From Escherichia coli (GTDB taxonomy: Bacteria; Pseudomonadota; Gammaproteobacteria; Enterobacterales; Enterobacteriaceae): 64,000 bases of DNA. The notes beneath the pieces were generated by a model. That model had not been told where the DNA came from, made no database searches, and saw nothing but the letters and a program-made list of their open reading frames with translations. The position numbers and the translations under genes are program-made. The DNA lies in NCBI RefSeq assembly GCF_003334405.1, contig NZ_QOWM01000007.1, one strand, 5' to 3'. This document shows, piece by piece, positions 1,645 through 59,978 of the stretch (position 1 is the stretch's first letter; the number at the start of each line of letters is the position of its first letter).

Positions 1645-2301
1645 TTATTGGTTTACTGCATATACAACCAGAAATTGCAGCGGTGCAGTAATGATGTCCA
1701 GCGTAACAGTCACTGGCAGTAATGCTGCGGAAACACCATCCGGAATGCCTCTGGGTGAATAGTATTCATAAAATCGCACTTTAAATGGATGGTAGAACGC
1801 CATCACCTTTGAGTAATCCATGTTTTTATTTTTCTCATGGATTGTGCCTTTTAGGTTTTCCAGTGACCTGGTACAGTGTTGAACACCACAGGCAAAACCA
1901 TAATGCGTTGCCAGTGCCTTTTCTTCTTCGTTATTCCAGTAGTAGTAAAGCGATATTGTGCCGGTAAATTTCTTTTTCCCCGCATTTAAAACAAATCTTG
2001 CGTCATCGGCAACCTGAATATTGTGCCGGTTAAGTGCTGGATCATTGAGCATCTTAACGATGTCATCGGCACCATCAGTGATAAGGTAATCCAGCGATTC
2101 CCCTACAAAAACATAGCCTTTTGTTCCATTACTATCTTTTGCCTGCGATAGCCCAGTGATGGTGTCTGACTGCGATTGATACTTTCCTGAACTACCCTTT
2201 GCGGTATGGGAAACCAGAGCATACGAGATACAGCCTGAAAGCATCAGCGCCAGTGGGAATAAACCGGCAGCCTTAAAAAATCCCTTAAAATTCAACTTCA
2301 T
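1645..2301 (-). CDS. yidX: Predicted lipoprotein YidX
   Basis: ORF 1645..2418 trimmed to [24 protein letters not shown]... (218 aa); signal peptide with lipobox LSGC. Confidence 0.85.
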
Positions 2302-2438
2302 GATTAATCCTTTAAACGAGTAGCTAAGCCGTTGAAAGCATACTCTTCTTTCCCTCCTGTTTAGCGCCTGATATCCCTTTTCAGATTTCTGCCCGACGCA
2401 TGTCATTTTTTTATGCATTGTTCTTTTTGTGATCTAAA

Positions 2439-2514
2439 TTGTAGTACAACAATATAAGTTTGTACTACATTACACGCACGGCAAACGCGAACGTCATCAC
2501 GCTGGTACTACAAA
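2439..2514. promoter_or_regulatory. dgo promoter region with three TTGTA-N-TACAA-like operator repeats (candidate DgoR sites)
   Basis: ttgtagtacaa (2439-2449, perfect inverted repeat), ttgtactaca (2460-2469) and gtactacaa (2506-2514), all within 140 bp upstream of the dgoR ATG. Confidence 0.55.
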
Positions 2515-2578
2515 GTTGCCGCGTTATGCATCGATCGGGGTAAAGTAGAGAAGAACATACAGAGCACAAGGACTCTCC

Positions 2579-3268
2579 ATGACTCTCAATAAAACCGATC
2601 GCATTGTCATTACGCTGGGTAAACAGATCGTTCACGGCAAATACGTGCCAGGCTCGCCGCTTCCGGCTGAGGCGGAACTCTGTGAGGAGTTTGCAACCTC
2701 GCGCAACATCATCCGTGAGGTGTTCCGTTCGCTGATGGCGAAGCGGCTGATTGAAATGAAACGTTATCGCGGGGCGTTTGTGGCACCGCGTAACCAGTGG
2801 AATTACCTCGACACTGACGTACTGCAATGGGTGCTGGAAAATGACTACGACCCACGGCTTATCAGTGCCATGAGCGAAGTGCGAAATCTGGTGGAACCGG
2901 CGATTGCCCGTTGGGCAGCAGAGCGCGCGACTTCCAGCGATCTGGCGCAGATTGAATCGGCGCTGAACGAGATGATTGCCAACAATCAGGACCGCGAAGC
3001 GTTTAACGAAGCGGATATTCGCTACCACGAGGCGGTGCTGCAGTCGGTGCATAACCCGGTGTTACAGCAACTTAGCATTGCGATCAGTTCGCTGCAGCGG
3101 GCGGTTTTTGAACGAACCTGGATGGGCGATGAGGCCAACATGCCGCAAACGCTCCAGGAACATAAGGCGCTGTTCGATGCGATACGACATCAGGACGGCG
3201 ATGCGGCAGAGCAGGCGGCGCTTACCATGATCGCCAGCTCGACACGAAGGTTAAAGGAAATCACATGA
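2579..3268 (+). CDS. dgoR: GntR/FadR-family repressor of the D-galactonate operon
   Basis: 229-aa ORF with an N-terminal winged-HTH region (PLPAEAELCEEFATSRNIIREVF); first gene of the dgo operon. Confidence 0.95.
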   Translation: MTLNKTDRIVITLGKQIVHGKYVPGSPLPAEAELCEEFATSRNIIREVFRSLMAKRLIEMKRYRGAFVAPRNQWNYLDTDVLQWVLENDYDPRLISAMSEVRNLVEPAIARWAAERATSSDLAQIESALNEMIANNQDREAFNEADIRYHEAVLQSVHNPVLQQLSIAISSLQRAVFERTWMGDEANMPQTLQEHKALFDAIRHQDGDAAEQAALTMIASSTRRLKEIT

Positions 3269-4143
3269 CAGCTCGCTACATCGCAATTGACTGGGGATCG
3301 ACCAATCTGCGCGCCTGGCTTTATCAGGGCGACCACTGCCTGGAGAGCAGGCAATCAGAAGCAGGCGTCACGCGCCTGAACGGAAAATCTCCGGCTGCGG
3401 TGTTAGCAGAAGTCACGACCGACTGGCGTGAAGAGAAAACGCCAGTGGTAATGGCAGGAATGGTTGGCAGCAACGTCGGCTGGAAAGTTGCACCGTATTT
3501 ATCTGTTCCTGCCTGTTTTTCGTCTATTGGCGAACAATTAACGTCAGTTGGCGACAATATCTGGATTATTCCCGGATTATGTGTCTCTCATGACGATAAC
3601 CACAATGTGATGCGCGGCGAAGAAACACAATTGATCGGCGCGCGAGCTCTGGCTCCTTCCTCTCTTTATGTCATGCCCGGAACCCATTGCAAATGGGTGC
3701 AGGCCGATAGCCAGCAAATCAACGATTTTCGCACCGTGATGACCGGTGAATTACATCATTTACTGTTAAATCACTCATTGATTGGCGCAGGTTTGCCGCC
3801 GCAGGAAAACTCTGCCGATGCCTTCACAGCTGGCCTTGAGCGTGGTCTTAATACGCCCGCCATATTGCCGCAGCTTTTTGAAGTTCGCGCCTCGCATGTG
3901 CTGGGAACACTTCCCCGCGAACAGGTCAGCGAATTTCTCTCTGGTTTGTTGATTGGCGCAGAGGTCGCCAGTATGCGCGACTATGTGGCCCATCAACACG
4001 CCATCACCCTTGTCGCCGGAACATCGCTGACCGCGCGCTACCAGCAAGCCTTTCAGGCGATGGGTTGCGACGTGACGGCGGTGGCGGGCGACACGGCATT
4101 TCAGGCTGGTATAAGGAGCATCGCTCATGCAGTGGCAAACTAA
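3265..4143 (+). CDS. dgoK: 2-dehydro-3-deoxygalactonokinase
   Basis: 292-aa ORF; ATGA overlap with the dgoR stop; recognised DgoK sequence. Confidence 0.95.
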   Translation: MTARYIAIDWGSTNLRAWLYQGDHCLESRQSEAGVTRLNGKSPAAVLAEVTTDWREEKTPVVMAGMVGSNVGWKVAPYLSVPACFSSIGEQLTSVGDNIWIIPGLCVSHDDNHNVMRGEETQLIGARALAPSSLYVMPGTHCKWVQADSQQINDFRTVMTGELHHLLLNHSLIGAGLPPQENSADAFTAGLERGLNTPAILPQLFEVRASHVLGTLPREQVSEFLSGLLIGAEVASMRDYVAHQHAITLVAGTSLTARYQQAFQAMGCDVTAVAGDTAFQAGIRSIAHAVAN

Positions 4144-4744
4144 ACTCCCGCTGATCGCCATTTTGCGCGGTATTACGCCCGACGAGGCGCTGGCGCATGT
4201 TGGCGCGGTGATTGACGCCGGGTTCGACGCGGTTGAAATCCCGCTGAATTCCCCACAATGGGAGCAAAGCATTCCCGCCATCGTTGATGCGTACGGCGAC
4301 AAGGCGTTGATTGGCGCAGGTACGGTACTGAAACCTGAACAGGTCGATGCGCTCGCCAGGATGAGCTGTCAGCTCATCGTTACGCCCAATATCCATAGTG
4401 AAGTGATCCGCCGTGCGGTGGGCTACGGCATGACCGTCTGCCCCGGCTGCGCGACGGCGACCGAAGCCTTTACCGCGCTCGAAGCGGGCGCGCAGGCGCT
4501 GAAAATATTTCCGTCATCGGCTTTTGGTCCGCAATACATCAAAGCGTTAAAAGCGGTATTGCCATCGGACATCGCAGTCTTTGCCGTTGGCGGCGTGACG
4601 CCAGAAAACCTGGCGCAGTGGATAGACGCAGGTTGTGCAGGGGCGGGCTTAGGCAGCGATCTCTATCGCGCCGGGCAATCCGTAGAGCGCACCGCGCAGC
4701 AGGCAGCAGCATTTGTTAAGGCGTATCGAGAGGCAGTGCAATGA
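4127..4744 (+). CDS. dgoA: 2-dehydro-3-deoxy-6-phosphogalactonate aldolase
   Basis: 205-aa ORF; Shine-Dalgarno aaggag 9 bp upstream; overlaps the dgoK 3' end by 17 bp. Confidence 0.95.
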
Positions 4745-5889
4745 AAATCACCAAAATTACCACGTATCGTTTACCTCCCCGCTGGATGTTCCTGAAAATT
4801 GAAACCGATGAAGGCGTGGTCGGTTGGGGCGAGCCCGTGATCGAAGGCCGCGCCCGTACGGTGGAAGCGGCAGTTCACGAGCTGGGTGACTATTTGATTG
4901 GTCAGGATCCATCGCGCATCAATGACTTATGGCAAGTGATGTATCGCGCCGGATTCTATCGCGGCGGTCCGATCCTGATGAGCGCCATCGCCGGGATTGA
5001 CCAGGCGTTATGGGATATCAAAGGTAAAGTGCTGAATGCGCCGGTCTGGCAACTGATGGGCGGCCTGGTTCGCGACAAAATTAAAGCCTACAGTTGGGTT
5101 GGCGGCGATCGTCCGGCGGATGTTATCGACGGCATTAAAACGCTACGCGAAATCGGCTTCGATACCTTCAAACTGAACGGTTGTGAAGAACTGGGGCTAA
5201 TTGATAACTCCCGCGCGGTAGATGCGGCGGTTAACACCGTGGCACAAATTCGTGAAGCTTTTGGCAATCAGATTGAGTTTGGTCTTGATTTCCACGGTCG
5301 CGTCAGCGCGCCGATGGCGAAAGTGCTGATTAAAGAACTGGAGCCGTATCGCCCGCTGTTTATTGAGGAGCCGGTGCTGGCGGAACAAGCCGAATACTAC
5401 CCGAAACTGGCGGCACAAACGCATATTCCACTGGCGGCGGGTGAACGCATGTTCTCACGCTTCGATTTTAAACGCGTGCTGGAGGCAGGTGGTATTTCGA
5501 TTCTGCAACCGGATCTCTCCCACGCGGGCGGTATTACCGAATGCTACAAAATCGCCGGAATGGCAGAAGCCTATGACGTGACCCTTGCGCCGCACTGTCC
5601 GCTCGGACCGATTGCACTGGCGGCTTGCCTGCATATCGACTTTGTTTCCTATAACGCCGTACTTCAGGAACAAAGTATGGGAATTCATTACAACAAAGGC
5701 GCGGAGTTACTCGACTTTGTGAAAAACAAAGAAGACTTCAGCATGGTCGGCGGCTTCTTTAAACCGTTAACGAAACCGGGCTTAGGCGTGGAAATCGACG
5801 AAGCTAAAGTGATTGAGTTCAGTAAAAATGCCCCGGACTGGCGTAATCCGCTCTGGCGTCATGAAGATAACAGCGTAGCAGAGTGGTAA
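4741..5889 (+). CDS. dgoD: D-galactonate dehydratase (enolase superfamily)
   Basis: 382-aa ORF; ATGA overlap with dgoA; recognised DgoD sequence. Confidence 0.95.
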
Positions 5890-6008
5890 TTCCTGCCACG
5901 TAAGCCCCTCATCGGGCACTAAAACAGCAATACAAAAATATAACCCTCTGTAAATTACAGGGCATGGTGAGCGGCTTCGCTATGCCCAAAATCTGGAGAA
6001 AGCTCGCT

Positions 6009-7301
6009 ATGGATATTCCCGTTAATGCAGCAAAGCCGGGGCGTCGGCGTTATCTGACGCTGGTGATGATCTTTATTACGGTAGTCATTTGTTATGTCGA
6101 CCGCGCCAACCTGGCCGTGGCTTCCGCCCATATTCAGGAAGAGTTCGGCATTACCAAAGCGGAAATGGGCTATGTATTTTCGGCCTTCGCCTGGCTTTAT
6201 ACGCTATGTCAGATCCCCGGCGGTTGGTTTTTAGATCGCGTAGGTTCTCGCGTGACTTATTTTATTGCGATATTTGGCTGGTCAGTGGCGACTTTATTCC
6301 AGGGCTTTGCCACGGGCTTAATGTCATTAATTGGTCTGCGCGCGATAACCGGTATTTTCGAAGCGCCTGCTTTCCCGACCAATAACCGGATGGTGACCAG
6401 CTGGTTCCCGGAACATGAACGCGCTTCTGCCGTTGGTTTTTATACGTCTGGTCAGTTTGTCGGTCTGGCGTTTCTGACGCCGCTGCTGATCTGGATTCAG
6501 GAGATGTTGAGCTGGCACTGGGTGTTCATTGTCACTGGTGGTATCGGCATTATCTGGTCGCTGATTTGGTTTAAGGTTTATCAGCCGCCGCGCCTGACCA
6601 AAGGTATCAGCAAAGCTGAACTGGATTACATTCGTGATGGCGGCGGTCTGGTGGATGGTGATGCGCCGGTGAAGAAAGAGGCGCGTCAGCCGTTAACAGC
6701 CAAAGACTGGAAACTGGTGTTCCATCGTAAACTGATCGGCGTTTATCTTGGGCAATTTGCGGTGGCTTCTACACTGTGGTTTTTCTTAACCTGGTTCCCG
6801 AACTATTTAACCCAGGAAAAAGGAATCACGGCGCTGAAAGCAGGCTTTATGACCACGGTGCCATTCCTCGCGGCGTTTGTCGGCGTCCTGCTCTCTGGCT
6901 GGGTAGCGGATCTGCTGGTACGTAAGGGCTTTTCACTGGGCTTTGCGCGTAAAACGCCGATTATCTGCGGCTTGCTGATCTCCACCTGCATTATGGGCGC
7001 TAACTACACTAACGATCCGATGATGATTATGTGCCTGATGGCGCTGGCATTCTTCGGTAACGGTTTTGCTTCGATTACCTGGTCGCTGGTTTCTTCTCTG
7101 GCACCGATGCGCCTGATTGGTTTAACCGGCGGCGTGTTTAACTTCGCCGGTGGTCTGGGCGGCATCACCGTTCCGCTGGTGGTGGGGTACCTGGCGCAGG
7201 GTTACGGTTTCGCACCTGCACTGGTTTATATCTCCGCCGTCGCGTTGATTGGCGCGCTCTCTTATATCCTGCTGGTGGGCGATGTGAAGCGCGTTGGCTA
7301 A
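6009..7301 (+). CDS. dgoT: D-galactonate:H+ symporter (MFS)
   Basis: ORF 5964..7301 trimmed to [15 protein letters not shown]... (430 aa); multi-helix hydrophobic MFS-type protein. Confidence 0.9.
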
Positions 7302-33775: not shown

Positions 33776-33949
33776 ATTTTTCTCATTTTGATTTTATCAA
33801 TTTGATTATTATTTATCATAAAGAAACGTCGCGAGATTATTAAAGAATATCCATTAATGTGCAATTGAAATGTGATAATTATCACTGAACCGTTGTTGTC
33901 ATTTGTTTTACAAAAGCAAGGGATTAAATCTCCTCCAATGGACAAAAAA

Positions 33950-59153: not shown

Positions 59154-59978
59154 CTATTTCTTCTCTGTAATTTTTACACTGTTTTCCAACTGCTTGATGC
59201 TGACCTGCGGGGTCGGCAACTCCTCAGGCATGGTTCCGCCAAGTTCCTGAATGGTTTGCATCACCTTGCTACCCACGTCAAAGTGTGTGGTATTAGCTTG
59301 CTGTTTTGAATTCACGCCATCCCGCTTGAGTTTTTCTTCTGTTTGGGTAGCTCGAAAGAGATTAGCCGCCAGTTCTGTTGAACCCATATGATCCAGGATC
59401 TTCTGATTCTTTTTCAGCCCCTTCCGCTGATGAATAGCTTTCTGATCTAATCCACCATACAGCCCCTGGTAACCATGATTCTGAAATATGGCGAAATCAG
59501 TAGCTGTCGCTACCCCAGCTTGCTGTGCTGCCTCAACCAATTGTTTGTTATGTTCTTTCAACTCATTTCTCAGAAACAGACGCTTTTCGTCTTCACGAAG
59601 TTGCTTAAATGCTTCATCGTCAGCAAGCTCCTGCCGTCGGGTCTGGATAGCAAAATAAGTCTGCCCTGCCGCAATGACCGGTTTCGCAGGGTCGCCGTTT
59701 TGTACTACCAGGTAACAGGCATAGCGGGAGAGTACGATGTCTTTTAATGCTCTTTTGGCATTTGAGCCAATTTTGACCATATCGAGGATCTCCTCGAAAT
59801 GGTCATCAATTGTGTGACCACTGTTCTCACAGGCTTCTTTGGCGCGCGTTAATACAGGTATAAAGTGACGATACTCTGAATAACCCAGTAGTTTCCCAAG
59901 TTGTCTTGCTGACCATTGTTCTGCTCCGTTTGCATTAATCAGTTTTATCTCTTCAAAAGGTTGATGATGTTCGTTCAT
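59154..59978 (-). CDS. dinD: DNA-damage-inducible protein D
   Basis: ORF 59154..59990 trimmed to MNEHHQPFEEIKLINANGAEQ... (274 aa). Confidence 0.9.
   Translation of the reverse strand: MNEHHQPFEEIKLINANGAEQWSARQLGKLLGYSEYRHFIPVLTRAKEACENSGHTIDDHFEEILDMVKIGSNAKRALKDIVLSRYACYLVVQNGDPAKPVIAAGQTYFAIQTRRQELADDEAFKQLREDEKRLFLRNELKEHNKQLVEAAQQAGVATATDFAIFQNHGYQGLYGGLDQKAIHQRKGLKKNQKILDHMGSTELAANLFRATQTEEKLKRDGVNSKQQANTTHFDVGSKVMQTIQELGGTMPEELPTPQVSIKQLENSVKITEKK

Follow-up and report, generated by a model that had tools for sequence, protein, structure and literature searches.

The dgo control region at the start of the window (the whole 64-kb stretch of DNA analysed) contains three related palindromes, of which two (S1 and S2) are the published DgoR operators IR1 and IR2 at the galactonate-inducible promoter P1, and the third (S3) is probably a weaker DgoR operator tied to a downstream basal promoter, here called P2. 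The assignment of S3 is based on three properties: its conservation is similar to that of S2, it is never perfect, and it lies at a fixed distance of 38 bp from the −10-like hexamer TAAAGT. We consider it very likely that DgoR acts from S1 and S2 on P1 as published and that S3 serves in addition as a weaker third operator of a basal promoter with TAAAGT as its −10 element.

Positions 2300–2600 of the window are 100% identical to the yidX–dgoR intergenic region of E. coli K-12 BW25113 and C600, and by this sequence identity the DNA is the K-12 dgo control region and not merely a related one. Gene names were taken from the RefSeq annotation of the near-identical BW25113 locus, window coordinates being locus coordinates minus 3701. 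The 277-bp intergenic region (2302–2578) is bordered by the divergent neighbour yidX (1645–2301, minus strand; RefSeq annotation) and by dgoR (2579–3268, plus strand), which encodes a GntR/FadR-family repressor and is the first gene of dgoRKADT. The regulated structural genes dgoK (3265–4143), dgoA (4127–4744), dgoD (4741–5889) and dgoT (5964–7301) follow on the plus strand; these genes and dgoR were assigned from open reading frames and the RefSeq annotation. Over the first 8,600 bp, the window and the RefSeq BW25113 locus show 3 differences, all single bases relative to the BW25113 substr. CHXR1G20 record (545, 4364 and 8100; G in the record and T, A and T, respectively, in the window), the one at 4364 falling within dgoA. 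The 2300–2600 region has a match in 5,425 of 5,426 complete E. coli genomes; in about 400 of these 5,425, no single match spans 80% or more of the 301-bp control region. In E. coli 2018-05-2CC (NZ_AP027877.1, 3001–3250), the entire dgoRKADT operon is gone, and yidX is followed immediately by a 3′ dgoT remnant and cbrA.

A scan of the whole 64-kb window with the motif TTGTANTACAA, allowing at most one mismatch, returned five matches compared with 1.33 expected from shuffled sequence. Three of the five lie inside 75 bp; at the shuffled rate, the Poisson probability of at least three matches in any 75-bp stretch of the window is about 5e-7. All three are situated in the dgo regulatory region adjoining dgoR and fit the DgoR palindrome TTGTA-N-TACAA: S1 (TTGTAGTACAA, 2439–2449) without mismatch and starting at −140 from the dgoR ATG at 2579, S2 (TTGTACTACAT, 2460–2470) with one mismatch and starting at −119, and S3 (TGGTACTACAA, 2503–2513), likewise with one mismatch, starting at −76. 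An independent repeat search gave the same relations: 2440–2449 is 100% complementary to 2460–2469, as is 2439–2447 to 2505–2513, and GTACTACA occurs as a direct repeat at 2462 and 2505. The three related sites upstream of dgoR proposed in an earlier sequence-only reading of this DNA were thus all recovered, and its label 'perfect' is correct for S1 alone, a 5+5 inverted repeat about a central base. The site that it described as being in reverse orientation is real, but such a label is nearly meaningless for palindromes; the difference consists of the central base (C in S2 and S3, G in S1) and of one half-site mismatch in each of S2 and S3. Likewise, the interval 2421–2578 that it assigned to the repeats is the part of the intergenic region from the CRP site to the ATG, whereas the sites themselves occupy only 2439–2513. 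The other two one-mismatch matches in the window, TTGTTTTACAA at 33903–33913 in the adeQ–adeD divergent intergenic region, with a broken GTA core, and TTGTACTACCA at 59700–59710 within dinD, are probably due to chance. A further direct repeat in the control region, TTATGCAT (2411 and 2524), was dropped since it showed no cross-species conservation.

The consensus described for operators of the FadR subfamily, with DgoR as a named example, is a palindrome of TKGT and ACMA boxes in which GT and AC are 3 nt apart (PMC4494728). The three sites read TTGT-AGT-ACAA (S1), TTGT-ACT-ACAT (S2) and TGGT-ACT-ACAA (S3); the GT-N3-AC core is present in all of them, and all match this TKGT/ACMA palindrome with its 3-nt gap. 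The proposal that they are GntR/FadR-type operators is supported by this match and by the regulator itself, which combines an N-terminal GntR wHTH domain (PF00392, residues 7–68, 7e-14) with an all-helical C-terminal FCD domain (PF07729, residues 98–218, 3e-27). PDB entry 7c7e matches DgoR over all 229 residues (E=3.7e-149). The closest NCBIfam models are NanR, LldR, GlcC and PdhR, each scoring under its cut-off, as expected of a paralogue.

The inverted repeats IR1 and IR2 of the dgoRKADT control region are reportedly to be credited to Singh et al. 2019, Arya et al. 2021, Singh et al. 2025 and Belliveau et al. 2018. DgoR has been characterised by the Chaba laboratory as a dimeric repressor of the FadR subfamily that D-galactonate frees from DNA (PMC11705089, PMC12288454). 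The published IR1 22-mer CTAAATTGTAGTACAACAATAT (PMC11705089) maps to 2434–2455 of the window, IR2 is described there as having one mismatch, and the 52-nt EMSA probe GA149 of the same laboratory maps to 2429–2480, with S1 and S2 inside and S3 outside. On these coordinates, S1 is the published operator IR1 and S2 is IR2. D-galactonate-relieved binding of DgoR was shown for the 52-nt probe carrying S1 and S2 only (PMC11705089), and also for a fragment spanning −145 to −110 (PMC6003448). Independently of the work of the Chaba laboratory, Sort-Seq combined with DNA-affinity mass spectrometry identified a repressor footprint at −140 to −110, corresponding to 2439–2469 of the window, with DgoR enriched; deletion of dgoR abolishes the footprint, and so does galactonate (Belliveau et al. 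2018, PMC6003448).

The same study located the wild-type −10 hexamer, a non-optimal TACATT, within −120 to −100, and a class II CRP site with TGTGA between −160 and −140 and its right half over the −35 region (Belliveau et al. 2018, PMC6003448). In the window, the −10 hexamer of this CRP-dependent promoter P1 is found at 2466–2471 on the plus strand, which would place the P1 start at approximately 2477–2479. The CRP site occupies 2425–2446 (column identity 0.81 in the cross-species alignment described below), with its left half TGTGA at 2428–2432 and a weak right half that overlaps S1; its centre at 2435.5 is 41–43 bp from the start so predicted, and TGTGATC precedes S1 in most species. It follows from the published positions of the footprint, the −10 element and the CRP site that S1 lies over the right CRP half-site and over the main promoter's −35 region, and S2 over the −10 hexamer TACATT of this promoter. 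Since dgoR is the first gene of the operon under DgoR control, repression of this promoter from S1 and S2 amounts to autoregulation. The claim that the repressor autoregulates from several operators therefore agrees both with the published binding of DgoR to S1 and S2 as IR1 and IR2 and with a prediction of all three sites for b4479 in 2015.

A Dam site (GATC, 2431–2434) is located inside the CRP half-site (TGTGATC), 5 bp from S1, and 77 of the 78 species have a GATC no more than 12 nt ahead of S1. In Salmonella, a single hemimethylated GATC upstream of dgoR has been linked to Dam-dependent ON/OFF heterogeneity (PMC7708049); A2432 of the present GATC is at −147 from the ATG, equal to the figure given for the Salmonella site. 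Occupancy by DgoR or CRP could protect the GATC at 2431–2434 from Dam. Between S1 and S2, the hexamer TATAAG (2453–2458) matches the −10 consensus at 5 of 6 positions and lacks cross-species conservation (spacer column identity 0.46). This hexamer may belong to the 'three overlapping RNAP sites' that Sort-Seq uncovered in the dgoR deletion strain (PMC6003448). A scan of 2250–2650 for consensus sigma-70 promoters and terminators found none; P1 and P2 are therefore both weak matches, and this simple scan neither supports nor refutes them.

The conservation of the three sites was assessed at the dgoR loci of 80 species representatives, mostly Enterobacteriaceae, with DgoR identities of 79–99%; 78 of them had enough upstream sequence. 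The 79 distinct sequences were aligned with MAFFT, and mean pairwise column identity was used as the measure. Nearly all of the 78 species have S1, S2 and S3 near −140, −119 and −76, and the S1/S2 pair has a spacing of exactly 21 bp in 77 of them. In these 77, S1 is perfect in 72 and S2 in none. For S3, 66 of the 77 species show no more than one mismatch and 75 no more than two, and it is perfect in none, although, as the species are related, this does not represent 77 independent observations. S3 starts 43 bp after S2 in 69 of the 77 and 42–44 bp after it in all. Column identity is 0.98 for S1, 0.91 for S2 and 0.86 for S3, compared with 0.46 and 0.43 for the spacers, 0.43–0.58 for the S3 flanks and 0.37 upstream of the CRP site; a phylogenetic footprint at the orthologous loci is thus present for S1/S2 and for S3. 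Within S3, there is no variation at G2505, T2506 and C2511, and conservation reaches at least 97% at A2507, A2512 and A2513; the conserved columns are the palindrome positions T-GTA-T-CAA. This pattern argues that S3 is under purifying selection with a signature of the DgoR motif. The mismatch of S3 falls at position 2 in Escherichia, Salmonella, Klebsiella and Citrobacter; most other genera deviate at position 8. Over the 301 bp, two divergent E. coli lineages differ at 17 and 21 places, none of them within S1, S2 or S3, and several of them just beside the sites, at 2451, 2458, 2473, 2474 and 2515. One contig titled 'Chryseobacterium sp. 18061' (CACSKA010000004.1) has a dgoR gene whose product is 90% identical to E. 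coli DgoR, together with the enterobacterial S1/S2 layout; this assembly is probably mislabelled or contaminated.

Downstream of S3, Sort-Seq revealed a second RNA-polymerase site at −70 to −30 from the ATG that is visible in glucose (Belliveau 2018, PMC6003448). It corresponds to 2509–2549 of the window and reaches the right half of S3 (−76 to −66). Within it, we assign a candidate −10-like element of P2, GGG-TAAAGT with a G at −14, to 2538–2546 on the plus strand (hexamer TAAAGT at 2541–2546), on the basis of conservation and of its location in the Sort-Seq site. The conserved block GGTAAAGTA at 2539–2547, which extends to GGGTAAAGTA at 2538–2547, has a column identity of 0.89. An unaltered TAAAGT occurs in 76 of 78 species, and in the same number its first base lies exactly 38 bp after that of S3; the 27 bp between the two elements are poorly conserved in sequence, and the ATG follows TAAAGT at a variable distance of 32–57 bp. 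In the eight species with an S2–S3 spacing of 42 or 44 bp, the S3–TAAAGT distance is still 38 bp. As the former spacing varies and the latter is fixed, it is the downstream element, more than S1 and S2, to which the position of S3 is locked. In Affinibrenneria, TAAAGT and the spacing are kept although S3 has decayed to four mismatches. The hexamer would place the P2 start at about 2552–2554 and the centre of S3 near −45 (about −50 to −40) of P2. Relative to the predicted P1 start, S3 lies at about +25 to +36, that is, in the P1 leader. The expectation that the repeats overlap the promoter rather than fall in the transcribed leader consequently stands for S1 and S2, but not for S3, which is found in the P1 leader just upstream of the second RNA-polymerase site. 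A leader RNA element as the reason for the conservation of S3 and TAAAGT was rejected, since RNAalifold on 20 diverse leaders gave 0 pairs and no consensus structure.

S3 has been predicted before. In a RegPrecise-style reconstruction of the DgoR regulon, Suvorova, Korostelev and Gelfand listed three DgoR sites for E. coli b4479 in 2015, CTAAATTGTAGTACAACAATA, TAAGTTTGTACTACATTACAC and CACGCTGGTACTACAAAGTTG (PLoS One, PMC4494728, S1 File), and these 21-mers are exactly S1, S2 and S3, S3 being CACGCTGGTACTACAAAGTTG. The finding of the sequence-only reading, including the third site, was therefore already in print as a prediction. Three DgoR sites each were also listed for E. fergusonii, Enterobacter sp. 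638, Cronobacter, Klebsiella, Shigella, Salmonella and Serratia (PMC4494728). In the DgoR_SFL row of that table, the IR1 equivalent of Shigella flexneri SF3769 is TTGTAGCGCAA, with two changes in the right half-site, and S2 and S3 are intact (PMC4494728); judged from the sequence, the IR1 change may be a derepressing operator mutation. The model of the Chaba laboratory comprises two operators, S1 and S2 only (PMC11705089), and Belliveau et al. observed a repressor-type footprint at −140 to −110 alone, with none reported at −76 to −66 (PMC6003448). Reg-Seq names a DgoR 'upstream site' and a 'right site' in a text without coordinates, so that they cannot be mapped to S2 or S3 (PMC7567609). A search of the DgoR literature, Singh et al. 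2019 (J Bacteriol 201:e00281-18) aside, returned no published experiment on S3, a literature search for a DgoR 'IR3' returned no match, and the P22 pid/dgo papers and the arXiv Reg-Seq follow-up contain nothing on dgo operators.

The published data give the following picture of P1. A DgoR dimer binds each of S1 (IR1) and S2 (IR2), covering the CRP site with the −35 region and the −10 element of a CRP-activated class II promoter (PMC11705089, PMC6003448), and the occupation of these sites without D-galactonate therefore shuts out RNA polymerase and CRP. D-galactonate binds DgoR and causes it to leave the DNA. To this we add a hypothetical role of S3, based on the layout described above. S3, in the P1 leader and at a fixed distance upstream of the putative second, basal promoter P2 with its −10 element TAAAGT, would most likely mediate negative autoregulation of P2, and might also act as a roadblock or as a cooperative reinforcement. 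As an imperfect operator, S3 would set the steady-state amount of DgoR such that S1 and S2 stay occupied, and its invariable defect fits such a set-point role, in which a weak operator on a basal promoter would maintain enough DgoR to saturate the stronger S1. Since the RNA-polymerase site of P2 is active in glucose with DgoR bound and no repressor footprint is reported there, repression via S3 can be at most partial. Going further, S3 may be a functional third operator that belongs to a second basal promoter, not to the known inducible one, and that is kept imperfect in every species, with lineage-specific defects tuning the DgoR set-point or, less likely, with DgoR activating P2; we put this forward as a plausible conjecture rather than a probable one.

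Several alternatives have to be weighed against S3 as a weaker DgoR operator of P2. The cluster might be a chance pile-up of A/T-rich palindromes in intergenic DNA, as the two additional one-mismatch matches in the window (33903 and 59700) illustrate. However, three matches in 75 bp against an expectation of 1.33 per 64 kb (p ~5e-7), the preservation of position and sequence across approximately 77 species and the experimentally shown binding to S1 and S2 make this so improbable as to be negligible, and it was rejected as already refuted by conservation and published binding data. More worthy of consideration, and yet somewhat unlikely, is the notion that S3 serves P1 only, where it could be a roadblock near +30 or an auxiliary operator steadying DgoR on S1 and S2 through contacts of dimers that share one helix face, in the manner of lac O1/O2/O3 cooperativity. 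The centre spacings of 21, 43 and 64 bp, equivalent to approximately 2, 4 and 6 helical turns, are the sole feature favouring looping or cooperativity, and the 21-bp spacing is invariant while that of 43 bp is kept in 69 of 77 species. In contrast, DgoR is reported to be dimeric (PMC11705089) with no higher oligomer known, a loop of 43–64 bp would be very tight, and it is the S2–S3 distance that shifts by 1 bp in eight species, never the distance from S3 to TAAAGT.

The remaining two alternatives concern what binds S3 and to which effect. S3 may not be a DgoR site at all and may be kept as a part of the P2 promoter (UP or −35-proximal), as the site of another regulator or as a leader RNA element, which we regard as unlikely. 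The half-site TGGTA of its E. coli form resembles half-sites of other FadR-family regulators, which would be consistent with this explanation. The same holds for its constant deviation from the palindrome by at least one mismatch and for the published work, in which, Singh et al. 2019 aside, we found no DgoR binding to S3. However, the conserved columns are exactly the palindrome positions, a symmetry unexpected of a promoter element or a one-sided site; an independent comparative study called the same site for DgoR (PMC4494728), and the 20 diverse leaders yielded 0 pairs in RNAalifold. Alternatively, DgoR bound at about −45 could aid RNA polymerase at P2 and thereby sustain its own synthesis while repressing P1. 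FadR, a repressor of the fad genes that also activates fabA when bound close to −40, provides a model for such an activation. The invariant 38 bp to TAAAGT and the centre of S3 near −45 of the putative P2 start are compatible with it, as is the observation that the downstream RNA-polymerase site, whose extent of −70 to −30 enters the right half of S3, drives expression in glucose with DgoR bound to DNA (PMC6003448). Nevertheless, DgoR is described throughout the literature as a repressor with no sign of activation (PMC11705089, PMC6003448, PMC12288454), a site at −50 to −40 can also repress by blocking the −35 region or alpha-CTD contacts, and the P2 start used in this argument is a predicted one, which makes an activating S3 very unlikely. 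We hence favour S3 as a weaker, repressing DgoR operator of the basal promoter P2.

Motif, regulator and autoregulation have all been published, as has even the third site. What our comparison appears to add are modest refinements, namely the breadth of S3 conservation, its constant imperfection and its fixed spacing to TAAAGT; the analysis shows that a reading from sequence alone recovers a real operator cluster, and little beyond that. Among the sugar-acid regulators of the GntR/FadR family, DgoR is the best studied, and S1 and S2 are its textbook operators. The loose end is S3, which is conserved about as well as IR2, is rigidly spaced to a −10-like element, and is missing from the two-operator model and from the 52-nt affinity probe. 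Should DgoR bind S3, a third site would have to be taken into account in the affinities measured so far and in models of dgo autoregulation and leakiness, including those of the Dam- and CRP-linked ON/OFF heterogeneity of Salmonella. If our reading of S3 is true, the dgo region would comprise two promoters and three operators, compared with the published one promoter and two operators.

The operators of FadR, PdhR, LldR, GlcC and ExuR resemble those of DgoR in being A/T-rich TKGT/ACMA palindromes that bind one dimer each, with an effector that releases the DNA. In contrast to FadR-subfamily operators in general, the DgoR sites have the core TTGTA-N-TACAA, and three of them, not one, are arranged over two promoter elements. 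Multi-operator autoregulated repressors with graded site strength are known from lac (O1/O2/O3) and gal (OE/OI). With these, the dgo region has in common one strong and two weaker sites, spacings in helical phase and a site beyond the main start; it differs in showing no sign of DgoR tetramers or looping, in far shorter distances and in the locking of S3 to a putative second promoter. Compared with the published K-12 dgo model, S1/S2, the CRP site that Belliveau et al. assigned to class II and the −10 hexamer TACATT are the same here, and S3 is absent from that model. The study of Suvorova et al. from 2015 contains the same three sites as a prediction on about a dozen genomes in which promoters are not mentioned (PMC4494728), and the present comparison extends it to 78 species and to the spacing between S3 and the downstream −10-like hexamer.
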